Shown here: positions 35,191 through 57,506 of the stretch, piece after piece
Layout: every line of letters starts with the position of its first letter
Position numbering within the stretch: position 1 is the first letter of the stretch
Source: an uncultured virus (IMG/VR IMGVR_UViG_3300022936_000008)
Taxonomy: Duplodnaviria; Heunggongvirae; Uroviricota; Caudoviricetes
Virus record (IMG/VR): IMGVR_UViG_3300022936_000008
Reading direction: 5' to 3' (one strand)
Length of the DNA stretch: 64,000 bases
Translations under genes and position numbers: made by a program
Notes under the pieces: generated by a model
Databases searched by the model: none
Seen by the model: only the letters and a program-made list of their open reading frames with translations
Told to the model about the DNA's origin: nothing

Positions 35191-35907
35191 TTACATTAAT
35201 CTTGGAACAAAGTCTGATTGCGTACATCCCGGCACAGGAATTAATCCCCCATCATTATTCTTAGAATTATTTGTTAACTCAAAATATTCAGACTCGGCTT
35301 GCATAAAGTTGTTATACCAAGATTTTTTAAATTCTTCTGAAATTTTATCTAATTCTACTAAAATGTGGAATCCACCGCGTGTCTGAACAATATTTCCTAC
35401 CACTGCTTCAGGGTTTATTTTGCCTGAAATCCAATTTAATAAGGTTTCATAAGAGCATCCTTTTCCTTCTTTAAAATCTACGTCAAAATCAAAATATTTC
35501 TTTACTCCCGTAACCTGAATCATATTCATAGTCACAGCTTCTGGGTTATAAATTGTACGCCCCTCAATTAAGAATCTTGTTAATTCTGCAATAGTTTTAA
35601 GTCCCGATTTGTGCATATCGCGTGGATTGGGTGTAATGTACATAACCAAACTCTCTTGGTTTATTTCTATACCATCAGTATCATACAAACCAATGGCAAT
35701 TTCTAATTTACGAAACTTACTAATTAAATCCTTCTTGTTACAAACTCCTCGTTTAAGTTGTGCTCTGTCTGCTTTTAACCCCTCTGTCTTTTTAAATTTA
35801 TTTCGCGCGAATAAAGACCAATAATATTTCTGCCCTTCTTCTAACTCAGGAAGCCAGTCAATGAATTTTTGTAATTCTTCTTGGTCTTGGATAATTTTAT
35901 AGTTCAT
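35191..35907 (-). CDS. Archaeo-eukaryotic primase (AEP) superfamily-like protein
   Basis: YITPNPR, YFDFDVD (motif I DxD), QTRGGFHILV (motif II). Confidence 0.55.
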   Translation of the reverse strand: MNYKIIQDQEELQKFIDWLPELEEGQKYYWSLFARNKFKKTEGLKADRAQLKRGVCNKKDLISKFRKLEIAIGLYDTDGIEINQESLVMYITPNPRDMHKSGLKTIAELTRFLIEGRTIYNPEAVTMNMIQVTGVKKYFDFDVDFKEGKGCSYETLLNWISGKINPEAVVGNIVQTRGGFHILVELDKISEEFKKSWYNNFMQAESEYFELTNNSKNNDGGLIPVPGCTQSDFVPRLM

Positions 35908-37091: not shown

Positions 37092-40000
37092 TTATTCCTC
37101 TTCGCTGTCACTCCAGATGAAGGATGTCCCAACAGTAAAATCGAAATTACCCTCATTAAAATTACCATAAGTTTTGCGGGTATTTTGGATATCATATAAG
37201 TCATAAACACCTTTGAAACCGGGAACAGTGGTTATGAAATATTTACTTCTCTCTGAAAACCCTTTATATTTACCACGAGTTACTTCATCTCCGTCAAACA
37301 CATCCATAACATTTGTCAGATTAGCAACACTCTGAAATCCTACAATTGGCGATTTAATTATCTCAGTTATGTTTGAACCAATTGCTAAAGAACTACTTGC
37401 TGTTTCACTTGCCACTCTATATGTCAAATAAGATGCCAGTTGTAGCGGATAGAGGTCAGCGTTGTCCTCATCGTCAGCAAATCCTTTTAAAACGACAGCT
37501 AATAAGATAACGGAGTTCAAAACTGCCATTTCTTTTGAAACTCTCATGATATTAGCCCTCTGAACGTCATCTGCTTTATTCCAAGCTGTTTTGAAGTTGT
37601 TTATCACTCCTTTTGCGCCAGAGTCTTTATACTCTCTAATGTAACTCCCCATGAAGTTAGCGAACGACAGGTAACTGCCCTCTTCTTCTATTCCTGTTTC
37701 TAAGTTTATCCCTCTGTTTTTTAAGCGGCGGCTTAAAGCAATAGACAACCAACCTCTGTGTGTGAAAAAATAAGAGAGGTAACTATCTCTTTGGGCATAT
37801 GTTCTATCCTCATTAGAAATAGAACCGTCCACATATTCATTTAAAACCCTAACTTGATTTGTGATTGTATTGTTTATGCTGTTTATTTCCGCCGATAATT
37901 CTTCTCCTGATTTTCCTAAATAATCCGCTAAAGATTTACCATCTACAACCCCTGAATAATCTAACGCTCCATCATTAGGTTTTAAAAACTTATAAATCAC
38001 TTGGTTTTCCAAAGCGTCCCAATTAACTTCAATGTCTTTTTTGGAAACCCCCTGCAATAATTGTTCTCGGTTAAATTGGTTGAAATTTATAACCCTATTA
38101 CCGACGACTCGGTAGTCATGCAAAATACTTAATAGGTTTTGTCCGTAAATTGGGTAGTTAGCCATTGAGTGTAAAGCGTACCCTGTTCTATTCATACCTC
38201 TAAATAAGGCACTGTAATTGGATGATTTATAAGATTCCTCCAAAGAAAAACTTTTAAAATGCTGGCCTAAAACATTTATCCAAGCCTTTGTGTTTATTTT
38301 GCCGAATTCTCGCATACCATCTTTCCATATACGTCCATATTCAGCAGTTCCTAATTTGTGTGATCTTTTGTGAAAATACTGTCCAATGAGCGTTTCAGTC
38401 CACACATTTAATTTAGCTGTAGCCCAAGATGTAAAAGGTATTACAACATTTAACCCTAAGTTTCTAAGCTTTACGTAAGATAGAAGCACTCTCGCTACTT
38501 TACTTATGTCAACATTTCCAAACGGTGTTTTTATAGGTAATGAAGATATTTCTTTTATGCCGAACATTGTATAATCCACAGAGCTTTTAAGCATCTTATA
38601 TGTCTGTGTTGCTACTGCGGCTTTTCCTGTTCCCTCGTATGAACGTGTCAATACGGTATCCATAATAGACATTACATCGCCATAATGTTTTATTTTAGAC
38701 TTTCTTGCATAGCTCTCTTTTGCAGCTAAAGTTAAAGAATAGAATAATTCATTACTCACATCTGACGGTTCAATTTCTGAAAGGTACATTTTAGGAATCA
38801 CTTTTACACTGTCCCCGAATTGAGTTCCTTTAACCATTTCATCATCGGTGAAACTGAATGTATCTTCAAAAACATTTCTAAGGTTTTGCGTTGTCTTTCC
38901 TTTAAATAGTTTTGAGGCTTTTTCTACCCGGCCTTTTCTAACTTGTGGCAACAAATAAGCGTTATACCCTTTTCCGGCATCATTAGCTTCTAAAGAGTTG
39001 AGCCTGTATTCCATCATCGCATTATAAACTTCAAAAAGTCTTGGATTTTTACTGCCTTTATCATCCCCGAATAAATCATAGAAACGTTCATTTTTGAATT
39101 GCTGTTTATTTGGTTGAATATACCCGCCATTAAAATTCGGATTGTAGTCCTTATTTAAATTATCAACATTCTCGGCTTCAAAAAATGAAATGTTAGGAGT
39201 GACCTCTAAAGATGGGTATTCACTTAAATCTGAAAGAAGCCCTGCTAAATCATCACTTGTTTGTAACTGTTCTTTAAAACTGTTATAGCTCAGTGGGGAG
39301 AATCTTTTGTAATAAGGTAAAAGCCTATCTTCAGAATACTGTTTCATAAAACGGCCATACTCTACAACATTCAGTAAATCATCCGCAACTTGTCCTCTTT
39401 TTTCAAGTAAGTTTTCAACAGATTTTGGAAGATTTTTTCTTTTCCCGGCTCTATAATCATCAATAGCCAATTGTGCTTTTGTTACAGACTTCTTATTCTC
39501 ATCAGTCATATGCTCTTTTGCATAGGAAAGCTGTTCTGTAATATTTCCAATGTTCTCTAAAAAAGCCTCTGTTTCATTAATGCCGAAATCTGAAAGCATT
39601 TTTACGTAGGAATCATTAACAGAAGAAACACCGTCTTCTAAAGTTTCAACATCTTCCTGTTCTTCTAAAGTGATGTTTTTTGTATATTTTTTAGCTCTCT
39701 CGATTAGTGCGGAAATATCTTGTTGTAAAGTCTTGATTTTATCTTTAGACTCTTGTGGCATTCTGTCAGCGTCAATCTCAACTGGAGAGTTCTTATTTAC
39801 AAACAGCCTTAATATGTTAGTTTTTTGCAGATTTTTTTCTTCTAACTCGGCAATTATTTCTCTAACCTCTTCGTTTTCTCCGGCAACTTGTCTTAGTTTT
39901 TGTGTAACTGTAAGCCCCGAAGAAAGCCCTTTCCAGAATTCTTCTTTAAAAGATATAAAAGCGTTCATTTGTAGGAAGTCTAAAGCCTCTTCTCGTCCGT

Positions 40001-42761
40001 GAGTTTGTTGAATTTTACGCAGTTCATTCAAAAATCTTTCCGAAGTTCCCTTAGTTGTGGAGAAAGTATTTTGGCTGTCTAAATTATTTAAGTCAAAAGC
40101 TATTCTAGCCTCAACACTTGCATTTTCACTTATCTCAAATATTGGTTTTCCGTTCTCATCAAGGAGGTTCACCCCATTTTCTTTTTTCTGAGAAAGCCCT
40201 ACTTTTAAATTTCCACTTGCATCATAATAGGCTTTTGCCATTCTACGACTTTCCTGCACTTCTTTTAACCGTTCTCTGTCAGCAGAGCTTAATAAACTTT
40301 GGTCTGTAACTTGCTTACCGTCAACCACTCTAATTGTTTTTAGCCTGATGTCAGCTAAGTCTGAGGAATAACCAGATAAAAATTCTTTTGTCTGCGGGGA
40401 AAGATTGGCTTTTTCGATTTTGTCTTCATATTCCTTATAGTAAGCATCATTATAAACTCTTTCACGAAGTTTATTCTGCTCTTTTCTTAATTCCTGCTCA
40501 TATTCAGATTGATTGTCTAAAGGTGATAGTTCTCTTTTTCTTTTTGATTCTAAAAGTTCTGCGTCTGTTAATTCCCCTTTATAATACTTTCTGTAAACAT
40601 CTAAAAACACTTTGTCTGACGCTTCTTTGAAAGCGGTGAAATCTGTAGAAGATATAATATAGCCACCATCCACAAGTTTCGCAAAATCTGCTTCTGTTAC
40701 GCCATTCTTTTCCATAAGGGTTTGTAGAGATTTAGTTTTGTTAAACCACTCTAAATCCCCCTCATTTGTCATATTTTTCATTACATATGCTGCCAAGTTA
40801 AGCATACCGTCACGGGCGTGAACCATTTGACCAAATGTGGCAATAAATGCAGAACTGTCTTTGTCTGCCCTTATTATCCATTTCCTTACGCTATCTGCCT
40901 GCGCATCTGACAAGCTGTGTTTTTGCTGTACTTCCTGTACAAGTCTTTCTACATTTTGACTATCAACTGTGTTAAATTCAGCCTGAGTTTCCCGAATAGC
41001 TTTAATGATTTCATTTATTGAAGTTTGTTGGGTTTTCCAATTTTTTAGTTCTGTATACCCGTTCTCAGTTATTAAAATGTTCACTTGGTTTAATAGAGGC
41101 TCAATTTCATTTGTCAAACTCTTAAAAATAATCATTTCTTCACTGCTAAGATAGCCACCTTTGGATTTTGCGTCTTTTAGGGCGGCTCTCACTTGGGAGA
41201 TTCTTGCCTTAGCCACCGCTGTAAGTCCTGCTACAGAATTTGACTTAATCACATCTTCCATCTGGTCTTGCACAGCTTTTAATTTAGAGAGGTTTGAAGA
41301 GCTTCCTAAATTGTTTTTTCTAAGGATTTTTTCCTGTTGTTGTAATTGATCTAAGAGCAGGTTTGTCACTCTATAAAGTTTACTTTCCGGCGATACATTG
41401 TAAAGCCTTAACGCACTTCTGTCAAGATTTGATAGATTAACCATCTCTGACAACTCCCCTGTTTGAACAATGTTATCTATGTCTTGTAAATAGCTGTCTA
41501 ATTCTGTTCTGTAGGACTTTTTAAAATAATTAGCGATATTTGTGAAAAATTCTCTTATTAATTCTAACGCATTTTCTATGAAGTTTCTTTGGGTTTCTGT
41601 TTTTTGTTCCGCCGAAAAGTTGCTAGCAATCGAATTGGCCACAATTTTACCCAACACTTCTTTTCTAACAGCATTTTCTAAATCAGCTTCACTCACTTCA
41701 TCACGATAAATTTCTCTGTAAGCTTGAGCAAATTCTTTATACTCCTCTGATTTATCAATGTTTCTTAAAATGTTTTCTGTTCTTTCCTGCGGAAAACTTT
41801 CCACTATAAAATGAGATACTTCTTCTGTTAAATCTTGCAGACTTATTTCATTTCCTGCATATGCCACCACTCTATTGGCTAAATCTGCTAAAGCACTTGC
41901 CGCCGGGTTTACGCCGTTTTTAATTTTGTAGTTTTTTATGTACTCGGAAATTGACACTACAGACACTCCCATTTTATTTAGGAGATTTAAAAGCCTCATT
42001 TGTAGGTCTTCCTCCGTTCTGAGTTGTAAGGGGGCTTCTAATTGCTCGATGTTGTTATATGCAGGTCTGTTAGCTGTCCACTCTCTTTGGGCTATTAATT
42101 CCTCTGCATTGTCAAATCTTTCTTTTAATTCTGGAAAACTTAAACTATCAATTTCTGTTTGTGTTTCTGTTTTTTGTTCGCCGGATTTATTGTAAACAAC
42201 TGTCTTATCTAAAGTTTTGTTTAATGTGAATGTATTTGCAGATCTTACAAGTGATTGCGAGCCTAAAGATGCTTTAGCCATATCCCACAACACTTCCATT
42301 GTAACGGCTTTCTTTTCTATTGATTCTCCTGCACTTTGTAAATAGTAGTCATCGCCAACTCTTTTTTTATTTTCGGAGATTAAATCGTTTACAATACCAT
42401 TCTGTACAAACCCTAATTCATTGGAAATGTTTGTATCTTTAGCTACGATGATTATTGAATGGAAACTCTCAGGTGTTGAAAAGCCTATTTCTATTTTTTG
42501 TCCCTCTTGCGCAGCTTTTAAAGCTTGTCCGTAACTTGCAAACTGTTCTCCATTTACAAGATGTCTCAGCCTTACATTTTCTTCCGGCGTTTCTTGGAGC
42601 TCTTTAGAAAAAATGTTTTGATAAATATTGAAAGCATCTTCAGTTGAATTCACTAAAGGGTGTTTGGCTATATTTATAAACAATTGAGATTCCTGCCCTG
42701 TTTGGGACACTACTTTTGTTATTCTATTTTCGGAATTTCTTGTTACGGAACAATTTAGCAT
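37092..42761 (-). CDS. Large virion cargo/ejection protein (1889 aa)
   Basis: Size, position and helical composition as in crAss-like cargo blocks; degenerate zincin-like LTEEVSH; hydrophobic C-terminal helices; single Cys at residue 4. Confidence 0.7.
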   Translation of the reverse strand: MLNCSVTRNSENRITKVVSQTGQESQLFINIAKHPLVNSTEDAFNIYQNIFSKELQETPEENVRLRHLVNGEQFASYGQALKAAQEGQKIEIGFSTPESFHSIIIVAKDTNISNELGFVQNGIVNDLISENKKRVGDDYYLQSAGESIEKKAVTMEVLWDMAKASLGSQSLVRSANTFTLNKTLDKTVVYNKSGEQKTETQTEIDSLSFPELKERFDNAEELIAQREWTANRPAYNNIEQLEAPLQLRTEEDLQMRLLNLLNKMGVSVVSISEYIKNYKIKNGVNPAASALADLANRVVAYAGNEISLQDLTEEVSHFIVESFPQERTENILRNIDKSEEYKEFAQAYREIYRDEVSEADLENAVRKEVLGKIVANSIASNFSAEQKTETQRNFIENALELIREFFTNIANYFKKSYRTELDSYLQDIDNIVQTGELSEMVNLSNLDRSALRLYNVSPESKLYRVTNLLLDQLQQQEKILRKNNLGSSSNLSKLKAVQDQMEDVIKSNSVAGLTAVAKARISQVRAALKDAKSKGGYLSSEEMIIFKSLTNEIEPLLNQVNILITENGYTELKNWKTQQTSINEIIKAIRETQAEFNTVDSQNVERLVQEVQQKHSLSDAQADSVRKWIIRADKDSSAFIATFGQMVHARDGMLNLAAYVMKNMTNEGDLEWFNKTKSLQTLMEKNGVTEADFAKLVDGGYIISSTDFTAFKEASDKVFLDVYRKYYKGELTDAELLESKRKRELSPLDNQSEYEQELRKEQNKLRERVYNDAYYKEYEDKIEKANLSPQTKEFLSGYSSDLADIRLKTIRVVDGKQVTDQSLLSSADRERLKEVQESRRMAKAYYDASGNLKVGLSQKKENGVNLLDENGKPIFEISENASVEARIAFDLNNLDSQNTFSTTKGTSERFLNELRKIQQTHGREEALDFLQMNAFISFKEEFWKGLSSGLTVTQKLRQVAGENEEVREIIAELEEKNLQKTNILRLFVNKNSPVEIDADRMPQESKDKIKTLQQDISALIERAKKYTKNITLEEQEDVETLEDGVSSVNDSYVKMLSDFGINETEAFLENIGNITEQLSYAKEHMTDENKKSVTKAQLAIDDYRAGKRKNLPKSVENLLEKRGQVADDLLNVVEYGRFMKQYSEDRLLPYYKRFSPLSYNSFKEQLQTSDDLAGLLSDLSEYPSLEVTPNISFFEAENVDNLNKDYNPNFNGGYIQPNKQQFKNERFYDLFGDDKGSKNPRLFEVYNAMMEYRLNSLEANDAGKGYNAYLLPQVRKGRVEKASKLFKGKTTQNLRNVFEDTFSFTDDEMVKGTQFGDSVKVIPKMYLSEIEPSDVSNELFYSLTLAAKESYARKSKIKHYGDVMSIMDTVLTRSYEGTGKAAVATQTYKMLKSSVDYTMFGIKEISSLPIKTPFGNVDISKVARVLLSYVKLRNLGLNVVIPFTSWATAKLNVWTETLIGQYFHKRSHKLGTAEYGRIWKDGMREFGKINTKAWINVLGQHFKSFSLEESYKSSNYSALFRGMNRTGYALHSMANYPIYGQNLLSILHDYRVVGNRVINFNQFNREQLLQGVSKKDIEVNWDALENQVIYKFLKPNDGALDYSGVVDGKSLADYLGKSGEELSAEINSINNTITNQVRVLNEYVDGSISNEDRTYAQRDSYLSYFFTHRGWLSIALSRRLKNRGINLETGIEEEGSYLSFANFMGSYIREYKDSGAKGVINNFKTAWNKADDVQRANIMRVSKEMAVLNSVILLAVVLKGFADDEDNADLYPLQLASYLTYRVASETASSSLAIGSNITEIIKSPIVGFQSVANLTNVMDVFDGDEVTRGKYKGFSERSKYFITTVPGFKGVYDLYDIQNTRKTYGNFNEGNFDFTVGTSFIWSDSEEE

Positions 42762-42937
42762 TAGTTTACTTGTAGTTTTTGTTGATTTTTTATATACTCT
42801 GAAAGGTGATTATCATTCCGGCGGCGGATTATATCGTTTAGTGTGCGCATTGCACTTTCCTGATCAATTTCATCTTGTTTGAATTTATTGAGGGTGTCAA
42901 TTGTTATCTGCAAAAGTCGATCTCTAATTTTATCCAT
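42761..42937 (-). CDS. Small helical protein (58 aa, not in ORF track)
   Basis: MDKIRDRLLQITIDTLNKFKQDEIDQESAMRTLNDIIRRRND...; overlaps both neighbours. Confidence 0.6.
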   Translation of the reverse strand: MDKIRDRLLQITIDTLNKFKQDEIDQESAMRTLNDIIRRRNDNHLSEYIKNQQKLQVN

Positions 42938-43412
42938 TTAATATTCTTATTGCTTTTTCTGAACATATTTCTGTAAGTCCATAACCTATATCAATGCAAT
43001 CAGGATGATTTATATTACCAGAGGTTTGTACAAAATTTCTCATTTGATCTGGAAGCATATCTGTGTCATCATCAATAATAACGTAACTATTCGGTTTATT
43101 TTTATCAACCCAAATTTTTATTTCATCACCTCTTTTTTCAGACTGCCAAAATCCGTCATCATCTTGATGCATCCCTAGATCAATAGTTACATCTATAACT
43201 TCACCGGGCAAATTTCTTTCTTGCCACATTTCTTGCATTATTTTTAATCCTGAATGTCTACGTGTGCTTGAAATTACAATTTTTGCTTCTGTTTTATCAA
43301 CTATTGTTTTAAGGTTTTTAACTAAATGTTCATGAAATGTCCCCCCAAATCTGTCATGGGTTTTGGGTATTATATTCAGCACACCATCAATATCTAAAAA
43401 TATTACTTTCAT
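42930..43412 (-). CDS. HAD phosphatase of the Swiss-army-knife RNA-repair type (HAD_SAK_2-like)
   Basis: VIFLDIDGVLN, IVISSTRR, RGDEIKIW, YVIIDDD. Confidence 0.85.
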   Translation of the reverse strand: MKVIFLDIDGVLNIIPKTHDRFGGTFHEHLVKNLKTIVDKTEAKIVISSTRRHSGLKIMQEMWQERNLPGEVIDVTIDLGMHQDDDGFWQSEKRGDEIKIWVDKNKPNSYVIIDDDTDMLPDQMRNFVQTSGNINHPDCIDIGYGLTEICSEKAIRILNG

Positions 43413-43416
43413 TTTG

Positions 43417-43424
43417 CAATATTA
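43417..43424 (-). promoter_or_regulatory. Near-consensus -7 promoter element before the HAD gene
   Basis: Minus strand TTAATTCGTAATATTGCAAAATG, similar to the element at 37019. Confidence 0.5.
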
Positions 43425-43436
43425 CGAATTAATTTT

Positions 43437-45530
43437 TTAACATCTATCAATTTCTGAAAGAATTTCGCTTTTTTCTGCGGCGGACAGTAAAGATCTTGTT
43501 TCAACAGCTTGATTTTCACTGCTCTTTACAAAAGCTAAAGGATTTATTTGCGATGATGGTTTCTCAAACCCGTATTCTTTAAAACCACTGTTGTTGGGTA
43601 AAAGTCTTGTATAAACTTCTCCATCTGTTTTCTCGTAAACATCTTTGCCAACTTTCAAAAAGTTTCCTTGTCTTTTAACAGTTATTGTTTCTGAATCAAT
43701 TCTTTGATAGTCGTTGGTGTATTTATTAAGTGTGTTTGGATAGTTTCTGTAATAATCTCTGTAATCTTGTATAGACGGTGGTTGTGGTAAAACTATTTCT
43801 ATTTCCGGTGAGAAATTACTGTCTTTTGCTAACATAAAATAATCCCTGAGTTGCTGCCCATCTTCTGTTTGCAAATAATTATTCATTTGTTCTATAGAAA
43901 TTGGATCTGTGCTGATTAAATTAATACCGTCTTGTGTGAATTGAAGATTTTGCAAGGCTGGATTTTCAGACTGTTTTATTTGTTTTTCCCGGATTTCTGA
44001 AACTACATCTTCATTTAAAGAAATTCCCATTTGCCCTATTACAGTTTCACTCTCTACACTTATTCTAGGAAGCTCACTCACAGGATTTAATTCTGTACCC
44101 ATAAACTCACTATATAAAACCATTTTAGCGGCTACATCTGCATCATATTCTGCTTCGGTGGTGTCAATTTCTACCAAACGGCTTGAGACGTATTCTGCAA
44201 TGTCTTCAGTGATTAATTCCTGATTGGAAAGTGCCGAATTATATTCTATTGGTAATGAAAAATTTCCTGATAGAATATTTTGATAAATACTGTTGTAAAC
44301 TTGTTCTAAACTTTGGCTTTGAGAATTTGTTTTTATCCATACTGAGTCTTTAATTTTTAATAATCCTTGCTCTTGAAAGAGTTTATAATTACTGTCTTTT
44401 GTATTTAATTGTATCAGGTTTTTATTGCGGAATTTTTCTTCAACTAAAACTACTTGTCTTTGTGGGAAAGTTTCATTTCCTACAAACTCATCATAAATAG
44501 GGGTAAACTCTTCAACATTGCCCTCTTGAATTAAAGATTCTAATTCGACTATGAAATTCTCTATTTCTATTTGAGAGTGGGTTTCTAATCCCGGCAAATC
44601 TAAACTAATGTCGGCAGCTTTTGATTGTAAGTCTTTTAAGAGTGTTTTTATGGATTTTGAGCTAGTTTCCCACACATTTGGGCTAATGCCTTTCAGATTA
44701 TTAATGGCTGTCTGTAAACCATTATTTTCAGGTGTTCTCAGAGTTGTTTCAAGAAGCTCTTGTGTATCGCTTAGCTTATCCAGTAGTTGTCCACGTACAA
44801 GTTGTTTTACAGGAATGTTAGAGAATGTTGAGAAAAATGGAAATAAATCTTTCTTGGTTTGTTTTAAATATTCTAATTCTGAGTTAAATAAAGCTGTTTC
44901 GTATTCTTCCCTGTTTTTTATCCCGCCCAAAATTTGAATGGCTTCCTGTTCATTTAGATAAGGATTTTCCATTTGACTTCTGCCTATCAGATTTGTCTCG
45001 GAATTTGTGCTTCTAAAGTCTTCATTAAAATAAAGCTCGTTGTCAACTGTTGGTGAATTTTGTATTTTATAAATTAACTGTTGAACGTCTTGGACTGTTT
45101 GGGGAGAGTTTAAGATGTTTTTTATTTCCGCCGCAGAATATAGACCTGTCTGTTGTAAAGATTGCTGTGTTGGGAATGGGATGAACGTTTGTTTTAAAAT
45201 CTGCCCTAATTCATCGGAGTTATTTAATTGTGTTGCTGATAGAGACAGTTTTAAATCTAGGTTTTCTTGCGGCGATAATTGCTCTTCATTTTTAGCTAAA
45301 ATGTAATTTACAACCGTTTCAAGGTTTGGCTCTTGGTTGTCATCTAATTGTGGATTTACCACTTCGCTCTGGAATAGTGGCGTGTAAGCTGTTAGCCAAA
45401 CATTCTCAGCGTCTGGTGCAAGCATTACTTTCTTGGCAGCATCAAATAGCTTTGACCTCTCTTGTGTTGCAACAGCTAAAGCATACTGCGTTTCACCATC
45501 TTCTTTTATAAAATTACAAGCTATTCCCAT
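43437..45530 (-). CDS. Virion cargo/ejection protein (697 aa)
   Basis: Acidic, Gln/Asn-rich; Cys only at residues 5 and 697; N-terminus resembles that of the 1889-aa protein. Confidence 0.65.
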   Translation of the reverse strand: MGIACNFIKEDGETQYALAVATQERSKLFDAAKKVMLAPDAENVWLTAYTPLFQSEVVNPQLDDNQEPNLETVVNYILAKNEEQLSPQENLDLKLSLSATQLNNSDELGQILKQTFIPFPTQQSLQQTGLYSAAEIKNILNSPQTVQDVQQLIYKIQNSPTVDNELYFNEDFRSTNSETNLIGRSQMENPYLNEQEAIQILGGIKNREEYETALFNSELEYLKQTKKDLFPFFSTFSNIPVKQLVRGQLLDKLSDTQELLETTLRTPENNGLQTAINNLKGISPNVWETSSKSIKTLLKDLQSKAADISLDLPGLETHSQIEIENFIVELESLIQEGNVEEFTPIYDEFVGNETFPQRQVVLVEEKFRNKNLIQLNTKDSNYKLFQEQGLLKIKDSVWIKTNSQSQSLEQVYNSIYQNILSGNFSLPIEYNSALSNQELITEDIAEYVSSRLVEIDTTEAEYDADVAAKMVLYSEFMGTELNPVSELPRISVESETVIGQMGISLNEDVVSEIREKQIKQSENPALQNLQFTQDGINLISTDPISIEQMNNYLQTEDGQQLRDYFMLAKDSNFSPEIEIVLPQPPSIQDYRDYYRNYPNTLNKYTNDYQRIDSETITVKRQGNFLKVGKDVYEKTDGEVYTRLLPNNSGFKEYGFEKPSSQINPLAFVKSSENQAVETRSLLSAAEKSEILSEIDRC

Positions 45531-45531
45531 T

Positions 45532-48500
45532 TTAACAAGGTTTGTTTAATTCGTTAATTTCTTTTTGAAGATCAATTACCTCTCCTAAAACTAAAATATT
45601 CTCCATTGCACTGCTTCTACCTTGTTTTGCAATATCTCTAGCTTTGTTGTATGCCTCTAATGCACCCATTCCTAGTTCTTTTTCAAGCTGTATTCTTAAT
45701 TCGTAGTTTATATTCTGTGGTTTTCCACCATATTGTTTATTAACTTTACTCCCAAGGGTTATCAAACTTATAAGTTTTTCACTCGCCACTATTCTGACAG
45801 GTTCAAAATTATTTCCCTGATTGAACTTCAATTGTTGATTAGGTTTGTATTTATTTTTGTCTACATTATCATATGGTATTGACTCAATTAACCGAAAGTT
45901 TCCATATATAGGTGTTGTTAAATTAGGTTTTTTAATCTCCACTTTAACTAACTGTTCTTTTTTATTCAAATCGTCATAAACCTTTAACATTTGTCTTAAT
46001 TCTTTGATATTTTGTTCTCCTATGGCTGTTTTTGTTTTCCCGGAAATTGTACCACTCAATGCTTTTCTGAGTGTGTTTATATTTCTGATTTTTTCAACAT
46101 AACTTTCGGCGATTTCTATTGGTGTGTCATCTAACGTCTCAATGAAGTTACCTGTCAATATGTTTTGATATGCCGGGTTTCTTAGGTAGTCAGCGTACAA
46201 GTTTTCTGCTTCTGTGTTTAATTCATCCACCATTTTAAGTTTCTGCTCTTCTAAGGACTCTGCTTGTTCTCCAAATGAAATTGGATCATTGCTTAATTTA
46301 TCCGAAACTTTAAATAGGATTTTGTTAGTTTGAAATGGTTTGTTGTCAAGTTGAATAGGAATTTGCGCGTCAAGTTTTAAATTTTGCTTATTATACCCTT
46401 TTTGTGCGAATTCTTCAACATCGACAAATGAAACCACTTGTGATAAATCTGTCAAAGCTCTTTCAACTTCCGGCGAATAAATCCAATCCTCGTTAGAATA
46501 ATCTATTTTATAATTTGATGGAGTAAGCCCACTATCAATCAAAGTATCGATTAAAGTATTTGCCTTATCATTACTTGGAATTTGTGAATTTAAAATGTTT
46601 GAAACATCTACACTTTTGTCGATTGTGGTTTGTGTTAGGGTGACAGGAAATGCGATAGTACGTCCATTATTTTCAAATACTACGAATGGCACTTTACTGT
46701 TTGGATTTAATTTCCCAAGACGGTCAACAAACTGCTTATCGTCAATTTGAGTGTTAGTTGTTATTTCAGTACCTTGTATGAATCCTGTACCTCTAACTGT
46801 TGTCAAAGCTTCGTCAGTGAATGGTAGATTTTTTACTTGAACAGTGCTGCCTATTAGTTCCATTTCTAAGTTAGGTGAACCTAAAAATGCAATTGTAGCT
46901 TCAACTTTTTCATTCAGTTTTATTTCTTTCTGTCCTTTTTTCTTTGCCGCCAATGCTTGTTTATAGGCATTTTTACGTAATTGCTGTAACTCTTTACCGA
47001 CTTCTGCTTCAATTTCCTTTTGTTGTGTGGCTGGAAGAGAGCCTAATAGTTCACGTGTGCCTCCTTTTAAAGTGTAAATATGCAATGAATTTATTTGACG
47101 TTGTTTTTCTTCTTTTGATAGATTTTCTGTGTTTTTCAAAAGTTCTGCATTATAAACATCATCCAAAGAAATAAGCAAATCTAAAGTGTCTCCTGCCTTT
47201 ACCTCATTTACAGCAGTCTCGTTTATTGTCCAGTTATCTGCTGGATTTATGCTTTGATAGTCGAAATCGCTTTTCACAGGGACATAGGTGTCTCCCACAA
47301 GTTGATGAATTGCTGTTGAAACTGACTTACTTCCCCATTGCTTAATAATTACATTTGATTGTGATTGCAATTCTTCAAACTTTTTACGGTTAACTTCAAG
47401 TCCGGCTCTGTTATTCACTCTCACCGATAAAGTTTCTTCACCTACTTGTAAAGAAAATTCTGTACCTTCTTTTTTGGAAAGTTTTGCCAAGTCCGCGTCT
47501 GTTAGAACATTATTTTGGTTTGCTATTGACAATACTGCGCCGGGAAAAAACTGAGCTAATGTGTTTATTGAAATGTGGTTGAAAGTAACTACGTCTTTAC
47601 CAAAAGTAGCTAGACCGTTGCTTTGCGTTTGTACACCTCTATTTGTACTTTCTTCTTGCTTGGCTAAAATATCATTGGTCTCTAAAACTGTCTTTAAGTC
47701 TTTATCTTCGAGAGTTAATTTAGTTTCTGATTTAGCGGCTTGTGTTTTAAGTTTTTCAATCATCTCTAATAAACTTGCAACAGAGTTATCTCCATCCACT
47801 GAGCCATTAAGAGTTTTCCAATCGTTAAGAACTTGATTCAACTGTTTAAATTCGTTGATTTCTTCAATTGTCAAACCTGTGTCAACTTTTCTTTTTTGAA
47901 AATAATCTGAAGGTCTGTTAATTAAATTTTGTAAAACAGGAATATTCGTGGAATTTACCTTTGAAAGTAATTCTTGGTATTTTTCTATTTCCTGCGCTGA
48001 TGGATTTCTTTTTGAAAGTTCTTCTACGTCTTCTCCAAAATAAGATGTCAAGTACTCATTTCCGGCAATTATTGCTTTTACTTTGTCTTGAAGTGCTGTT
48101 ATAGGGTCAGACGTTTCTCCCCTACTTAACGTTTCTATCTCCTTATTTAAATTTTGAATTTTAAGATTTATTTGTTCTTTATCCGAGTAATTAATATTGG
48201 TATCTAAGTTAGTAGAAATGTAGTTCAAAAGATTATTAAAAACAGAGTTGTCTAAACCAATTAGTTTTGATACTATTTGAGTTAACTTACTCCATAGTGT
48301 TTCCTTTGTCACCTGTACATCTTCTGCTTCGATGTTTTTTAGAAGTTTTATAAATGCAGGATCTGTTAAACCTAATGTTGCAAATTCTTCAATGTCTGAC
48401 TCTATGTACCTAATTTTTCCTTGTATATCATCAGTACCACTAAAATTATTTTTAATGTAGGCCTTACCCTGCTCTGTTTTTGTAAAATCGGTTACCTTTT

Positions 48501-51500
48501 TAAATATTTTACTCAGTCCGTTGTGAAAAGATTTATCTCCAGTCTTACCTTGCTCATTTAGTTTTAAATTTATAAGCCCATGTACAAATTCGTGCGATAA
48601 CACTTCAATTTTTTCCGATTTTGACATTTTATCAAAAGCAGCTTTATTGATAGTTAAGATGTTGCTTAATTTACCATCTAAAACGGCAGTATCCATAGAA
48701 GCTATTGTGGGTAATCCACCAATATGTGCTCCGTCAAATGATACTCCTATTTCACTATCTATCAAATATTGTTTTATAAATTCAAAATCTTCTTGTAAGT
48801 TATAACTTTCTAAAGTCTTTTCAATTTTTTCTAAATTTGTATTTTTTAATAGGGGATAGACTTTATTTTTTAATTGCTTTAAAGCCTCAATTTGTTTTCT
48901 TTTTTCTTGAATAGAATTCTCTGGTGTGGTGATGGCTGATAGAGTTTCTTCTTCAACTCTTTCTTTTAGAGAATCTAAAATTTCCTGATCTATTTGGTTT
49001 AATGTAAATCCTTTTTCCAATTGGTCTTTCAGGCTTTGTAAGTACTCTGGGGTCACTTCCTTACCTTGTCTGAAATTATTTCTTTCTGTAACCTCTGTTA
49101 TTTCCTGAAAAGTTTCAGTGGTGTTTTGTTTGTAATTTTGCGCCACTCTTCTGAAAAACTCTGCTGTACCTGCTTCCAACTCTGTATTTCGATTTAACAG
49201 GCTTGTAACCCATCCATTCAAAAGTTTAACCCTCAGTTTTGGATCAAATATTTGTCGGGAAACATTATCATATTCTTTAACGTGGCTAACAGCTTTTGAT
49301 TGTTGTTTTAAGAGTTCTGTAATTGTAGAATGTCTTTGTGGATCAATGCTTTTGATGTTTTGAAGTGCGGCCTGAAATTTCTCTAAATTTTGCTGTTGGT
49401 TATCAACCATTTCCTGAGAAATAAAAGTTCCATTTGAAACTGTTTCTATTCCCAAAGCTGCAAATGCAAGATTCTTTTGAGCCTCTAAAGTTTGAAGTTC
49501 ATTCGTTGCATCAAGTAGTTCCTGATTTATGGCTGTAAGTTTTTGAACCCTCTGCTCTGAAGTGTCTGATTGTGCTGCTAAAACTCTTCTCTCTAAAGAT
49601 GTAAGTCTTCTTTGAGCCGACCCCACTTGTTTTTGTTTTAATTCGTATTCTCTTCTTTTCGTTTGGTCAATTTGTTCCAGAGCATCTTCCGTGTCTAAAG
49701 CATATGTAGATTCTGTTGTTGTAAGTCCTTGAGCAACTAACGATTTAATATTGGCGAGTAAGTTTTGATTAATTTCCAAAGCCTGTTTACCCATTGTAAT
49801 GTTAAATGCTATTCCTTGCTCAATTTGAGATTTTGTTAATTGGTCTTTATTTAATCCGGCAATATCTGATGTTCCAAGTAAAGCCTGAGCAAACTGTAGA
49901 TTTTTACTGTGTTCTTTTGCAACAGTTGTATATTCATTTATTTTTTCTGCTTTCCAATCTTCTACTTCTTCTACGGAGATTCCTAAATCCTCTTGTAATT
50001 GTTCTGTTGGATAACTTTTAATGGCCGTTGTAAAATCTTTAATCCCTTCTTCCACACCTTGGAAAACATAATCTCTCTCCACTGCCGCTACAATGGCTGA
50101 TCTGTTAGCCAAGACTTCTCCGGGTAAATCATTTTGTTGCTGAGCTACTTCTGCATTTTCCTGCGCATTTTGAATTTTATTTCCAGAGATTAGCTTTTGC
50201 ACAATCATTGGTTTTGTTAATCCATTTTGATAAGTGAGTGCATCATCTATTGCTTGGCGTTCACTTGACAATTCATTAAATCTTCCTCGGGTAGAAACAG
50301 CTCCACCTAAAATACCTATTATCATTCCTATCCCAACTTCTTTAAAACCCTCTTTAGTTCCAAATGTGTGTGATAAAGCGTCATAAAAAGCATCAGTTAT
50401 ACCTAAGGAATTTTTTGTCTTATCCTTAGAATAGCCATTTAAAACATAGTTTTCAGCGGTTGATGATATAACAGATTGTCCTCCCTCTTCATAAGCTCCT
50501 TCAAGCACTCCGTATTTTGCCACTCCCCAAACTTTACCTGCTATTTTTTGAGCACGGGTTGCCTGAACAGCTTTAAATGTTCCTGCGGCTGTTTTATCAA
50601 ACCCCACTCCAAATAGAGTCCTTTGTAATACATTATTTGATACTTGTGGTGTAATTGTTTTGCCAAGAGCTAAATTTCCAAATGCAGCTAAGTTTGAAGA
50701 GCCTACAACTGCTAAATTTAATGCAAAAACAGCGTTAGCTGCGTTGGCATTTGTGTTTCTAAAATCTGCTATCTCTTCTGGTGTTGCATTTGGGTTTTGC
50801 TGTTTCCAAGCCTCCTCTGCTTGTTTTGTATAGAAACGTGCTTCCATTCCAGATTCATATCCAGCCGAAGTGAGTAAAAATCTTCCTTGTTCTAAGGCTT
50901 TTGTTGCTCTGTATCCTGAAATTGCTGCGTTTTTTGTTGCGTCTTCTACAATTCCAAAACCTGTTTTTGGTATACCCCCCTCTACCGCTGCTTCTGTCGC
51001 TTCTGCTGCTGCTCTGATTGGTTGTTTAGCCCAAGACTTCATTTTAGAAAGTGAGGACAAAGTTTTTACTTCTCCCAATGCCTCTGTCCCCCATCTTGCG
51101 GCTGATCCTAATGCACCTTTTGCCAATAGTGAAGTCCCACCTGTAGCTGCTGCCCAAAGCCCTTCTGAAATAATTGCACCTGTTGTAAAAGATAACCCAC
51201 TAAGAACATCATTCGCCCAGAAATTAGCTGAAGTTGTGGAGTCTAAAAATCCTGCATTTTTTTCCTGCTCTGAATAATAGTTTGGAAGTTTGTAATCCAT
51301 CTTAGTGTTCAAGTCATCAAGCCAAGTGTTCAAATCAGAATTGTATGCTGCCGATAAAGAACCCTGAGTCACTCCTGATATAAGAGAATCTACAACCCCA
51401 ACTGTTCCGCCTAGAACGGCTGTTCCTGTTTTACCTAAAAATTTTGTAAAACCGTTTGTCCATTTCTCGCCTGATGTTTGACCTTGTGCAAGTCTTTCTT

Positions 51501-51789
51501 CGTTATTTGTATTAGGTAGGAAATTTTCATATCTTGCAATGTATTCTCCACTATTTAGAGGTGCATATAAGTCGGTGAACGGTGTTGTGTAGTCAACAGT
51601 TTGTATTCTGTTATCTTGATTTAGATTGTTAACATTTGAGAATGAATAGAGATTAGACAGGTCACTATTACCTAAAGACTGAAATTCAACTTTCTGTTTT
51701 ATAGTGTCGGCCAAACCTTGTATTGGCGTCTGTTCTTTTAACTCCGCCGGGGCTAAATAACTAAAGTCAGGAGTATTATTACTGGCCAT
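45532..51789 (-). CDS. Large virion cargo/ejection protein (2085 aa) with N-terminal Gly/Ala-rich membrane-type helices and an internal zincin domain
   Basis: G/A-rich hydrophobic helices in aa ~110-500; EVLSHEFVHGL and IEEFAT zincin motifs; only Cys is the last residue. Confidence 0.75.
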   Translation of the reverse strand: MASNNTPDFSYLAPAELKEQTPIQGLADTIKQKVEFQSLGNSDLSNLYSFSNVNNLNQDNRIQTVDYTTPFTDLYAPLNSGEYIARYENFLPNTNNEERLAQGQTSGEKWTNGFTKFLGKTGTAVLGGTVGVVDSLISGVTQGSLSAAYNSDLNTWLDDLNTKMDYKLPNYYSEQEKNAGFLDSTTSANFWANDVLSGLSFTTGAIISEGLWAAATGGTSLLAKGALGSAARWGTEALGEVKTLSSLSKMKSWAKQPIRAAAEATEAAVEGGIPKTGFGIVEDATKNAAISGYRATKALEQGRFLLTSAGYESGMEARFYTKQAEEAWKQQNPNATPEEIADFRNTNANAANAVFALNLAVVGSSNLAAFGNLALGKTITPQVSNNVLQRTLFGVGFDKTAAGTFKAVQATRAQKIAGKVWGVAKYGVLEGAYEEGGQSVISSTAENYVLNGYSKDKTKNSLGITDAFYDALSHTFGTKEGFKEVGIGMIIGILGGAVSTRGRFNELSSERQAIDDALTYQNGLTKPMIVQKLISGNKIQNAQENAEVAQQQNDLPGEVLANRSAIVAAVERDYVFQGVEEGIKDFTTAIKSYPTEQLQEDLGISVEEVEDWKAEKINEYTTVAKEHSKNLQFAQALLGTSDIAGLNKDQLTKSQIEQGIAFNITMGKQALEINQNLLANIKSLVAQGLTTTESTYALDTEDALEQIDQTKRREYELKQKQVGSAQRRLTSLERRVLAAQSDTSEQRVQKLTAINQELLDATNELQTLEAQKNLAFAALGIETVSNGTFISQEMVDNQQQNLEKFQAALQNIKSIDPQRHSTITELLKQQSKAVSHVKEYDNVSRQIFDPKLRVKLLNGWVTSLLNRNTELEAGTAEFFRRVAQNYKQNTTETFQEITEVTERNNFRQGKEVTPEYLQSLKDQLEKGFTLNQIDQEILDSLKERVEEETLSAITTPENSIQEKRKQIEALKQLKNKVYPLLKNTNLEKIEKTLESYNLQEDFEFIKQYLIDSEIGVSFDGAHIGGLPTIASMDTAVLDGKLSNILTINKAAFDKMSKSEKIEVLSHEFVHGLINLKLNEQGKTGDKSFHNGLSKIFKKVTDFTKTEQGKAYIKNNFSGTDDIQGKIRYIESDIEEFATLGLTDPAFIKLLKNIEAEDVQVTKETLWSKLTQIVSKLIGLDNSVFNNLLNYISTNLDTNINYSDKEQINLKIQNLNKEIETLSRGETSDPITALQDKVKAIIAGNEYLTSYFGEDVEELSKRNPSAQEIEKYQELLSKVNSTNIPVLQNLINRPSDYFQKRKVDTGLTIEEINEFKQLNQVLNDWKTLNGSVDGDNSVASLLEMIEKLKTQAAKSETKLTLEDKDLKTVLETNDILAKQEESTNRGVQTQSNGLATFGKDVVTFNHISINTLAQFFPGAVLSIANQNNVLTDADLAKLSKKEGTEFSLQVGEETLSVRVNNRAGLEVNRKKFEELQSQSNVIIKQWGSKSVSTAIHQLVGDTYVPVKSDFDYQSINPADNWTINETAVNEVKAGDTLDLLISLDDVYNAELLKNTENLSKEEKQRQINSLHIYTLKGGTRELLGSLPATQQKEIEAEVGKELQQLRKNAYKQALAAKKKGQKEIKLNEKVEATIAFLGSPNLEMELIGSTVQVKNLPFTDEALTTVRGTGFIQGTEITTNTQIDDKQFVDRLGKLNPNSKVPFVVFENNGRTIAFPVTLTQTTIDKSVDVSNILNSQIPSNDKANTLIDTLIDSGLTPSNYKIDYSNEDWIYSPEVERALTDLSQVVSFVDVEEFAQKGYNKQNLKLDAQIPIQLDNKPFQTNKILFKVSDKLSNDPISFGEQAESLEEQKLKMVDELNTEAENLYADYLRNPAYQNILTGNFIETLDDTPIEIAESYVEKIRNINTLRKALSGTISGKTKTAIGEQNIKELRQMLKVYDDLNKKEQLVKVEIKKPNLTTPIYGNFRLIESIPYDNVDKNKYKPNQQLKFNQGNNFEPVRIVASEKLISLITLGSKVNKQYGGKPQNINYELRIQLEKELGMGALEAYNKARDIAKQGRSSAMENILVLGEVIDLQKEINELNKPC

Positions 51790-54538
51790 AAATTTGTGTC
51801 AATTTATTAAGTACAAAATTTGTTGAGTTTGGTGTGGATTTTTCTGCCAAAACAGATTGTAAAAGCGAATTTACATATAACTGAGGAGTAAACCTAATCT
51901 TATCGTAAACAGATTGAATATTTGTGTCGTTTATTGGTGTCCTGTCTTCATATATCAACGTTTCATCATCACCTATTTTTCTTATGATTTGAGGAAATAC
52001 TCCATAAGGTGTTTTATTTAATTTTACTACGATGTTTGGGTCTTCTATTACACTTCTTATAATTATTCCTGTTTGTGTTGGTGCATCCAAGCTTCCTGTC
52101 ACTTTAGAAAACTGAGGGTTTTTAAACATTAAATCTAAAGCCCCCTCTTTGGTTGTTGATTCTGCTGCTCTAATATCCCCGGCTAAAACATTGTTAGCTA
52201 AATCAAGTATTCTACGATTATCATTAAAACTGCCATATTTAACGTTGCTTTCAATGTTTGGAATATTTTTGGTGTTTAAAGTGGCTTTTTTATTTTGCAA
52301 ATCTATTTGATTTCTAAGACTTTGAGGTAAATCTTCAATACGTTCATCCGCTATTCTTGTATTATCAATAATCTGGCCTTTACTAGTAGATTCTTTAAGC
52401 TGAGAGATTCTAACCATATTTGGTTGGTTGGGTATCATATTTATAACCAAACTGTTACTATCAGCTACATCAAATTTATCTCCCACAAATGTTGACAAAT
52501 CTGTAAAAGCTTTTGTTTTTGGCGGGATTAAAACTGTTTTGTTAATTGCTAGTGTTTCGTCTTGAGCAAGTTTCTCACCGACATCTTTTCTTATTTGTGC
52601 GGAAGAATTTATAAAGCTGTCAACTTCGGGAATATCGTCAAATGAATCGTCCGCTGATAATATTCCAGCCCTGTTAAACCCCCCTTGCTTTCTGTGAAGC
52701 TCTAAATATTTAGCTGTCTTTGAGTTTGGATTTAAGGTATTAGTTGTGAAATTTGAGACTCCTGCGTATCCTCCATAATTTCTTGATGGTACTTGTTGTA
52801 TTGCTATTTCTGCATAATTTTCACCAAGTGATTGGGCTAAATTTCTAATATATTCTGTATTTCCGGGGTTGGATACTGCTTTATCAGCATAAATTGAATT
52901 CTGTAAAGCTGTCATTAACTTTGGTGTTTCTTTTAGACTTCTAACCTTTTTTCCATTAGTATCCACTATACCATTTACTTTCAGTACCTCAGATGCCGGA
53001 AATAATCTCTCTCTGCCATCAGAACCCGTCCATGCTATTTTAATGTTTGGGTTTGAATAAAGTCTTTGTACTAGTGCATCGGAATCTAGCACTTGTTTTG
53101 TAGCATCTGTAGCTTCTTTAACCAAGGTATTAAATTTGTCTTTTTCGGTGGTTTGTAGAAGCCTTAAATCATCAAGTCTTTTTGCCTGTTCTACGCTAAC
53201 GATGTTACTTGAATTTTTACCTAGTGTAATTAAAGCATCTGCTCTTGTTCCGCCATTTTTTTGAACTTCATCATCAATAACTTTGCGAGTCGTTGGGTCT
53301 AAAGTATCATAAATATTTTGTGTTTCTGACTCTAATTTTTGGTCAAGGCCTGCTACATATTGTTGCTGTTTGTCATATAAATCAGCCTGTCCTTGTGGGA
53401 ATTCTTGCGGTGTTATTTTAGTTTGTATCCCTGCACTATCTGTTTGTTTTTTATCCGCCCGGTCTAAAGCATCTTTATTTACTTTATACTCATAATTAAC
53501 CCTATTCCAATAATTAGAATTTACAGATTGGCTTTCAAACACGTTATCGAATGCAAAAATCTTTGAGAAATTCCCAATTGTTCTATTGGTGTACATTGTT
53601 GTGTACATTGCTGATTTATTACCTGATGCAATTACATCATCAAACTGTTTTGATTGAGTGCTTTTTTGATTTTTAAATGCTTCGAGACTTTGTTTATATT
53701 CGGTGTTTTCAGGCTCATTCTTAAGCAGTGTTGTGTACTTGTCTATGTTGTCATTAACTGTTTTTAATGCTTCGTCTCTGTAGTTTGTAAATGCTGTTGT
53801 TACCCTGTTTAATTTTTCTTCCGGTGTATTTCCTTGGTCGTAGGTTGCCCACCCATCAATTTGAAGTTGCTTTTTTGCACCGTCTGTTAGTAAACTACTA
53901 GTTATGTTATACAGCTTATCTTCGGATAATGATTTGCCCTCTCTGGTAATAAAATATTCAGAACCATCTGGTCTTGTTTGTTTTATTACATCTGCATATT
54001 TGTCAAGGTTTTCAGAGATATCCTTTAATTCTTTTTGAGCATCCGTGAAATTTGTATAAGAGAGGTTTTGAAGTTTATTGGTGTTTCCTTTCATATACTC
54101 AGAAAATCCTGCTTGATCTAAGGCATATCCATAATTGGTTTCCGAATATAGTTCTGGTTTTTTCTCTTTTAGTTTTTCAACGCTGGAATTAAAGTTTTGA
54201 AACTTTTGTGTGTTTTCTATGGCATTTAATACAATTGGATCGGCTGCTATTGTTTTAAGTTTGCTTGTGAAGTCTGTGGCAACACTATTTTTAGACAAAT
54301 CTCTATTACCTGAGCTGTTGATTTGATTTGTAACTTCTGTGAGTTTATTTGATAAATACTCTTTATCTTGATCTCGTAAAAGATTAGTAGCCCCAAATTG
54401 GTCTAACGTAGATTGTATTTGTGCGTAGTTTTTATTGTAAGCCCCTTGTTTAACTTCTAGCACTTTCGCTACAAGAGGTAAGTTTACATTGCTTACTATT
54501 GGACTATAATTTACGGGTTGACTGAGATAACTGCTCAT
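51779..54538 (-). CDS. Virion cargo protein (919 aa)
   Basis: Position in the structural block; no Cys seen; helical. Confidence 0.65.
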   Translation of the reverse strand: MSSYLSQPVNYSPIVSNVNLPLVAKVLEVKQGAYNKNYAQIQSTLDQFGATNLLRDQDKEYLSNKLTEVTNQINSSGNRDLSKNSVATDFTSKLKTIAADPIVLNAIENTQKFQNFNSSVEKLKEKKPELYSETNYGYALDQAGFSEYMKGNTNKLQNLSYTNFTDAQKELKDISENLDKYADVIKQTRPDGSEYFITREGKSLSEDKLYNITSSLLTDGAKKQLQIDGWATYDQGNTPEEKLNRVTTAFTNYRDEALKTVNDNIDKYTTLLKNEPENTEYKQSLEAFKNQKSTQSKQFDDVIASGNKSAMYTTMYTNRTIGNFSKIFAFDNVFESQSVNSNYWNRVNYEYKVNKDALDRADKKQTDSAGIQTKITPQEFPQGQADLYDKQQQYVAGLDQKLESETQNIYDTLDPTTRKVIDDEVQKNGGTRADALITLGKNSSNIVSVEQAKRLDDLRLLQTTEKDKFNTLVKEATDATKQVLDSDALVQRLYSNPNIKIAWTGSDGRERLFPASEVLKVNGIVDTNGKKVRSLKETPKLMTALQNSIYADKAVSNPGNTEYIRNLAQSLGENYAEIAIQQVPSRNYGGYAGVSNFTTNTLNPNSKTAKYLELHRKQGGFNRAGILSADDSFDDIPEVDSFINSSAQIRKDVGEKLAQDETLAINKTVLIPPKTKAFTDLSTFVGDKFDVADSNSLVINMIPNQPNMVRISQLKESTSKGQIIDNTRIADERIEDLPQSLRNQIDLQNKKATLNTKNIPNIESNVKYGSFNDNRRILDLANNVLAGDIRAAESTTKEGALDLMFKNPQFSKVTGSLDAPTQTGIIIRSVIEDPNIVVKLNKTPYGVFPQIIRKIGDDETLIYEDRTPINDTNIQSVYDKIRFTPQLYVNSLLQSVLAEKSTPNSTNFVLNKLTQIYGQ

Positions 54539-54551
54539 ATATGTATTTTAA

Positions 54552-54584
54552 ATAAAAAAGCCCCAATTTACTTATATTGAGGCT
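54552..54584 (-). terminator. Intrinsic terminator/attenuator between cargo genes
   Basis: Minus strand AGCCTCAAT...ATTGGGGCT followed by a T-run. Confidence 0.7.
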
Positions 54585-54614
54585 GTAAAAATAGTTGTTT
54601 ATTGCTTATTAAAA

Positions 54615-54636
54615 AAATTGGTAAAATTTATTCTAA
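54615..54636 (-). repeat. 22-bp element, copy 2 (inverted)
   Basis: Reverse complement of 4371-4392. Confidence 0.8.
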
Positions 54637-54642
54637 TCTATA

Positions 54643-57504: not shown

Positions 57505-57506
57505 AT

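Follow-up and report, generated by a model that had tools for sequence, protein, structure and literature searches.

In cyanopodophage A4 (Anabaena phage A-4L), the C-terminal helix of one ejection protein, gp27, inserts into its neighbor gp26, and the two are fixed in the virion by a disulfide between Cys1715 and Cys5 (PMC12002296). In the available parts of that paper, the authors neither remark that these cysteines are the only ones in the two proteins nor generalize the arrangement; we checked the sequences and found that Cys1715 is the sole cysteine of gp27 (1717 amino acids, aa) and Cys5 the sole cysteine of gp26 (1114 aa). The ejection proteins of the Schitoviridae (N4, DEV) are likewise purged of cysteine, but in that system there is one giant cysteine-free chain, with no terminal pairs reported in the portions of the source at hand (PMC11445570). 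In the accessible sections of the crAss001 structure paper, tail disulfides are present in the virion and are listed for the tail assembly, and the order of ejection is ascribed, as probable, to packing and interactions (PMC10172136). Here we describe three cargo protein genes, A, B, and C, encoding proteins of 2085, 697, and 1889 aa, in a 64,000-nucleotide stretch of DNA from an uncultured member of the Caudoviricetes (IMG/VR record IMGVR_UViG_3300022936_000008; the whole stretch is referred to as the window). The only cysteines of these proteins lie at the ends that face one another in gene order. We propose, with a probability of about 0.6, that disulfides formed tail to head in gene order, after non-covalent docking, keep the unfolded cargo in sequence during ejection.

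Cysteines at the facing ends of the cargo proteins

The first-pass annotation, made from the translations, had counted four cysteines in the 4,671 residues of the trio, all at facing termini, and none in three further proteins of 919, 953, and 488 aa. Both counts held: with codons checked, the four are Cys2085 of A, Cys5 and Cys697 of B, and Cys4 of C (Table 1). The same annotation had called the three genes consecutive, which is wrong, since a HAD_SAK_2 gene separates B from C. At the rate found in 46 other window genes (130 cysteines in 9,256 residues, or 1.40%), ~66 cysteines would be expected in the trio, compared to the four observed, and the chance of four cysteines falling one each into four 6-residue junction windows is ~7e-11. 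None of these 46 background genes has a cysteine in its first six residues, and only one has a cysteine in its last three. Moreover, the common N-terminal pattern that had been noted in B and C is genuine, as their family profiles align over 61 columns with a probability of 98.2% (E 3.4e-14). The cysteine pattern is far beyond chance, and it is conserved across the order.

The best annotated matches are to Cellulophaga phages phi4:1 and phi17:2, followed by csAssE-Sib. The structural and cargo block of the window is syntenic, gene for gene and in the same order, with gp35 to gp42 of phi4:1, in which the orthologs of C, B, and A (gp35, gp37, and gp38) are annotated as virion proteins by tandem mass spectrometry. 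By these matches, the phage is a relative of phi4:1 and phi17:2 in the epsilon crAss group, in which phi17:2 was placed by Yutin et al. (PMC7886860, available text); a terminase was not identified among the window genes scanned. In a 27-sequence comparison, A matched Kehishuvirus gp47 (E 5e-12) and C matched both Kehishuvirus gp49 (E 7.5e-15) and phi14:2 gp65 (E 8e-4), while A gave no direct match to phi14:2 gp67. By homology, the trio corresponds to the crAss virion cargo module (gp67-gp66-gp65 in phi14:2, gp47-gp50-gp49 in crAss001) in its epsilon-group form, and its proteins are probably packed and injected. The epsilon group is said, in the text available of Yutin et al. (PMC7886860), to be without the transcription block, but this block is in fact recognizable here.

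Tabulation of cysteines in orthologous trios, a comparison suggested by the first-pass annotation, revealed that the terminal cysteines are conserved in homologs. Among 60 C homologs, a set that includes the C of the window, 59 have a cysteine within the first eight residues and none has one within the last 11; 58 are free of interior cysteine, with a total of four interior cysteines in 126,722 residues, and the sole homolog that lacks the head cysteine begins further in. Among the B homologs listed (150 of the 197 found), the head cysteine is present in 124/150 and the tail cysteine in 137/150. When 18 sequences that were under 500 aa or without a Met start were dropped, these values were 119/132 and 130/132, with five interior cysteines in 145,616 residues, and the 13 proteins without a head cysteine were seven A+B fusions and six apparently truncated or mis-started sequences.

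We also scored whole loci. The 160 loci taken (80 of 282 viral and 80 of 141 metagenomic) reduced to 46 distinct ones, of which 41 were scored. Of the five set aside, four were gut loci in which either a start had been mis-called or the frame of C was broken, and a cysteine-bearing head is still visible in all four; the fifth has a 4974-aa C bearing Cys3. In the 41 loci, the tail cysteine is present in A (25/25) and in B or A+B (37/37), and the head cysteine is present in C (41/41) and in B (25/26); in the lone B miss, an in-frame cysteine-bearing head sits upstream of the first ATG. Each of the 16 complete genes for A or A+B encodes a single cysteine, at the tail, and the outer end of A is cysteine-free. 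The head cysteine occupies positions 3-5 and the tail cysteine is followed by 0-10 residues. Mean column identity is only 20-36% in these families, whose terminal cysteines stay invariant, and in the C head alignment the only invariant residues are Cys, Val, and Ser. The pattern is also found in cultured phages. The phi14:2 trio has exactly four cysteines (gp67 Cys1797, gp66 Cys3 and Cys2179, gp65 Cys3), the crAss001 proteins have gp47 Cys2339, gp50 Cys5, Cys1334, and Cys2404, and gp49 Cys5, and the phi4:1 trio displays the terminal-cysteine pattern as well. Furthermore, two Suoliviridae fusions carry a terminal cysteine opposite the head cysteine of the next protein.

Three separate observations were made on these proteins and their neighbors. 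The C gene is frameshifted in records L002 33086-39488 (csAssE-Sib), L137, L143, and L157, possibly through assembly errors, which hides the cysteine-bearing head in the annotation. A 4974-aa C homolog (L040 629-15550) has ADP-ribosyltransferase, LPD23, and radical-SAM domains, and its only interior cysteines are three iron-sulfur cysteines. Cargo protein 1 of crAss001, gp45 (L168 5988-8516), has an interior pair, Cys390 and Cys398, as does phi14:2 gp69 (Cys369 and Cys378).

Fused and re-split genes

Gene fusions and splits bear on which ends belong together. B is joined in one gene to A, or to part of A, in six distinct loci; all six are without the B head module and without the junction cysteines, the B profile beginning at 91-161. 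In the five full A+B fusions, only the B tail and C head cysteines are left, so that these two must be partners if pairing is heterotypic. The fused forms fall in three separate places, one of them sister to the window, in a tree of 41 C sequences (midpoint root; the four set-aside gut loci and two short C sequences were left out). In locus L025, A is split into two pieces with an extra cysteine pair, which makes four chain members.

In phi4:1 and one other locus (L100), the last 85 residues of A match B-profile columns 88-171 (E 6e-16 and 1.6e-16, respectively) and B starts at 186; these are the only two of 26 A tails that match the B profile. Thus, the A/B boundary of phi4:1 is shifted ~170 residues into B, whereas the window keeps the ancestral boundary. 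The shifted ends of both loci bear a cysteine pair, without a head module. In L107, which is sister to both (support 1.0), A runs into B from that same position, 91, with no cysteine at the spot. The boundary inside B and this fused sister, lacking cysteine at the spot, indicate that the phi4:1-type junction arose by a fusion and then a split at a new place, whose new ends carry the cysteine pair. In phi4:1 itself, gp38 and gp37 overlap by 17 bases (L015 8098-8114), and both junction cysteine codons share bases in this overlap, in different frames.

The spacing of the A, B, and C genes varies from this 17-base overlap to a gap of ~8 kb, and in crAss001 gp47 is encoded on the opposite strand. 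In three gut epsilon loci (L044, L074, and L135), a stretch of 7-9 kb holding many unrelated genes separates B from C, and the facing cysteines are kept. The variable gaps and the opposite strands in crAss001 imply that the link is made between finished proteins and is not translational. We had considered that read-through or frameshifting joins the proteins, and the same facts rule this out.

Chemistry and role of the proposed joint

The chemistry that fits best is a disulfide, based on the loose positions of the cysteines, the lack of a second conserved metal ligand, and the solved analog in A4. The likeness to the A4 pre-ejectosome extends to the layout, with neighboring ejection proteins of which one has its sole cysteine two residues from the C-terminus and the downstream one has its sole cysteine at position 5. 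In A4 the C-terminal helix is docked on the next protein and fixed by the disulfide (PMC12002296, as far as accessible), and a tail helix is predicted in B. In contrast to the single junction of A4, there are two here, and phmmer found no match between A, B, or C and A4 gp26 or gp27. The first-pass annotation had paired each C-terminal cysteine with the next N-terminal one in gene order; the pairing gains from the fusions and splits and from the A4 precedent, in which the bond is solved, while in the window we infer the bond itself.

The annotation had also suggested co-folding the ends and measuring sulfur-sulfur distances. For the B tail/C head junction (the last 38 residues of B with residues 1-170 of C), the co-fold gave a weakly supportive score of 0.60, compared to 0.02 for the best control, and no such distance. 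The runs agreed in at least 71% of contacts, with a partner predicted local distance difference test (pLDDT) score of at least 62. For calibration, 116 of 157 solved complexes reach the mark, as do 2 of 215 mismatches, and scores of 0.60 or under are found for only 18 of the 157 solved complexes and for both mismatches. The tail profiles of the two junctions differ when compared to each other.

The cytoplasm, where assembly takes place, is reducing, which argues that docking comes first and oxidation after lysis. For this reason, the idea in the first-pass annotation that the cargo is packaged as one covalent thread is doubtful, and non-covalent docking followed by oxidation is more likely. 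While still in the cytoplasm, one protein would dock by its tail helix on the head module of the next, and the proteins would be packed together. Once the virion is oxidized after lysis, disulfides A2085-B5 and B697-C4, for which A4 is the precedent, would make of them a post-translationally joined polyprotein, and the purging of interior cysteines would prevent wrong pairing. When the proteins unfold for passage through the tail, docking would be lost but the bond would keep the backbone continuous, such that the proteins follow in order until reductants of the host cytoplasm free them. That the bond serves ordered ejection is suggested by its place at the very chain ends and by its interchangeability with a peptide bond. 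The number of threads needs revision as well, because there is space in crAss001 for each cargo protein in several copies (PMC10172136, sections seen), which points to several chains per virion instead of a single one.

A number of points weigh against ordered ejection by disulfides. The co-fold covered one junction of two and returned neither an interface nor a sulfur-sulfur distance. The A4 bond is described, in the available parts of the paper, only as stabilizing the packed pre-ejectosome (PMC12002296), the cargo of crAss001 is structurally unresolved in the sections seen (PMC10172136), and in the partly accessible literature that we found no disulfide is reported between crAss-related cargo proteins. 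Bayfield et al. analyzed crAss001 virions by LC-MS/MS with and without reduction, and the search that they describe was for linear peptides only (PMC10172136). Interior cysteines do occur, with four in each of the two Suoliviridae fusions, two or three in gut epsilon B and C proteins, one in crAss001 gp50, and seven in the B of locus L024. There is no B+C fusion among 61 C homologs, so that the B/C junction is without a fusion test, and the loss of cysteines upon fusion is by itself weak evidence, since the termini vanish. Finally, the phi4:1-type junction has no head module, which means that docking either can be dispensed with in some cases or is achieved by other means. Separately, we considered whether the interior cysteines of the Suoliviridae fusions are vestiges of a junction, and rejected this because their positions lie within the gp66-like part.

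The main rival to ordered ejection accepts the same tail-to-head disulfides, but has them only staple the packed core, or a complex refolded after ejection, with no tow-line that sets the order. The comparative evidence for pairing fits a staple equally well, the docking module accompanies the cysteine in most members, and a staple is how the A4 bond is described in the text at hand (PMC12002296). We nevertheless think that stapling alone is unlikely, if far from negligible, since a staple could sit anywhere on an interface, whereas here it would in every case sit no more than a few residues from the ends of the chains; moreover, the joint is swappable with a peptide bond in the fusions and returns at a new split without the docking module, as backbone continuity would require. 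Binding of a metal by the terminal cysteines, for instance in a zinc clasp of two or four cysteines from different chains, is improbable. Such a clasp would work in a reducing cytoplasm during assembly, and the co-fold gives no geometry that speaks to it, but the tail and head alignments have no His column at 50% and no invariant acidic column, the head offers only Cys, Val, and Ser as invariant residues, the shifted phi4:1 pair does without the module, and the solved analog is a disulfide.

Less probable still is that the cysteines serve another chemistry (lipidation, a thioester or ligation, or protease recognition) or form homotypic pairs between copies. The zincin motif in A (Table 1) and the proteolytic processing of the module proposed by Drobysheva et al., in the part of that work available, would suit protease recognition; however, head cysteines at 3-5 and tail cysteines followed by 0-10 residues are placed more loosely than a ligase or lipid signal would allow, we looked near the N-termini and found no hydrophobic stretch of the signal type, and like-with-like pairing does not predict that head and tail cysteines are gained and lost in equal numbers or that the outer ends are cysteine-free. 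Chance, or a by-product of general cysteine depletion in ejected proteins, would account for the empty interiors, as in the cysteine-free ejected proteins of N4-like phages (PMC11445570, portions seen), but is given next to no weight, as it fails on the invariant cysteines at facing ends only, in families of 20-36% identity, and on the new pairs at splits.

Returning to ordered ejection by tail-to-head disulfides, a more general form of this reading is a redox-jointed polyprotein, in which separately encoded cargo proteins, in any number, are disulfide-joined tail to head, pass the tail of the phage as a single ordered thread and come apart in the cytoplasm of the host; their joint would be swappable with a peptide bond and re-created at splits, and it would outlast loss of the RNA polymerase (RNAP) core and act as a conveyor for effector domains. 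We consider this form an even bet.

Protein B and the virion RNA polymerase module

The middle member of the chain resembles the virion RNAP of phi14:2, gp66. The B family profile matches the N-terminus of gp66 weakly (E 7.5e-4, probability 25%) and does not match Kehishuvirus gp50 (E 0.38), and B alone as a query found no relative in the viral-contig scan. None of the three proteins reached the cut-off of any Pfam or NCBIfam family, and no credible hit came from sequence searches of the PDB, in which A and the profiles of B and of the C head served as queries. The structural model of B is confident (pLDDT 91). With the whole fold, gp66 is the top Foldseek match, but a weak one (E 0.047), and ranks fifth in VIA-align (Z 6.4), behind common helical bundles. 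When the C-terminal half was refolded, gp66 was the top match in both programs (Foldseek E 0.014; VIA-align to gp66 1854-2134, Z 6.6, root-mean-square deviation 5.2, 181 residues aligned, compared to Z 3.6 for the runner-up), although a Z below 8 is not proof of homology. A motif search found no DxDxD in A, B, or C, nor is there one among the labeled B homologs of loci L008-L047. The profile and fold matches to gp66, taken with the missing DxDxD, suggest that B is probably the scaffold of the virion RNAP minus its catalytic core. In this comparison with the crAss virion RNAP module, A is homologous to gp47 and C to gp49 and gp65, the B head corresponds to the gp66 head and the C-terminal half of B to the gp66 fold, and the terminal-cysteine pattern is common to all; B of the window, however, has 697 aa and no DxDxD, compared to 2180-2412 aa for its counterparts. 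The epsilon-gp66 link may be partly in print already, as the crAssE-Sib paper, in its available part, describes an epsilon protein that is similar to gp66 by HHpred and is called an RNA polymerase (PMC11054128).

The length of B ranges from 517 to 2584 aa among homologs, and in the long members the stretch between the two terminal cysteines holds LPD23, ADP-ribosyltransferase, kinase, or RadC domains. Domains of polyvalent proteins (LPD23, ART-PolyVal, Kinase-PolyVal) thus occur within the chain in long relatives of A, B, and C, but none of these Pfam domains is above cut-off in the window's own trio. B probably persists as a connecting member of the chain and, in relatives, also as a place into which effector domains are inserted.

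The features of the trio and its surroundings are collected in Table 1. The HEFVH motif makes A a weak candidate for zincin-type activity, and the 488-aa candidate cargo protein has a phage tail lysozyme domain. Just past the cargo block lies an RlaP-type nucleotidyltransferase gene (35897-37000), which, like the HAD_SAK_2 phosphatase within the block (42930-43412), belongs to an RNA-repair family. On the other side, a large muzzle-like protein (58976-64000, open at the window end) has at least 25 cysteines, in sharp contrast to the six cargo proteins. The window also encodes a PolA-like DNA polymerase (20213-22609; NCBIfam matches below cut-off), unlike the epsilon group, which the accessible text describes as without a DNA polymerase (PMC7886860).

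Table 1. Positions of the cargo trio, its terminal cysteines, and adjacent features in the window
Feature	Position	Strand	Remarks
Protein A, 2085 aa, first chain member	45532..51789	-	Ortholog of phi4:1 gp38; distant homolog of crAss gp47
Cys2085, sole cysteine and final residue of A	45535..45537	-	Codon checked
HEFVH zincin-type motif, A residues 1066-1070	48580..48594	-	Predicted only; Pfam PhageMetallopep matched weakly (E 0.05), under the cut-off
Protein B, 697 aa, middle member, virion-RNAP slot, without DxDxD	43437..45530	-	
Cys5 of B	45516..45518	-	Codon checked; invariant in 69/69 alignment rows, picked among homologs having both terminal cysteines
Head module of B, ~60 aa: Cys, beta-hairpin, S-x-L, two helices	45351..45530	-	Paralogous to C head
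B residues 489-672, predicted fold matching phi14:2 gp66 1854-2134	43515..44066	-	Z 6.6
Tail helix of B (684-696) after flexible linker, then Cys697 (codon 43440-43442)	43440..43481	-	Structure prediction
HAD_SAK_2 gene, 160 aa, between B and C, outside chain	42930..43412	-	Two ordinary cysteines
Protein C, 1889 aa, last member	37092..42761	-	Ortholog of phi4:1 gp35; homolog of crAss gp49 and phi14:2 gp65
Cys4, sole cysteine of C	42750..42752	-	Invariant in two alignments (34 rows, 37 rows)
Head module of C, ~60 aa	42579..42761	-	
Three cysteine-free candidate cargo proteins (919, 953, 488 aa), upstream, outside chain	51779..58973	-	

We found no paper on the terminal cysteines of crAss cargo in a literature search made largely without subscription papers, and cargo cysteines go unmentioned in the passages searched of the gp66 preprint and of the crAss001 paper. 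The disulfide chemistry has a solved precedent; what would be new is a chain of several members, which in the window is probably without the polymerase core, and a pair that has formed again where the gene boundary moved in a phage in culture, phi4:1. A disulfide chain would account mechanistically, down to named residues in three cultured phages, for how megadaltons of protein, in crAss phages including an RNA polymerase of 250 kDa, pass a narrow tail in order. Its persistence without the polymerase core would imply that the chain serves delivery, not transcription, and the phi4:1 junction is a case of the pair arising anew at a moved gene boundary. If B is indeed a core-less RNAP, epsilon phages keep a module that they are said to lack, and a slot that accepts foreign domains hints at a general way in which phages extend the set of proteins they inject.

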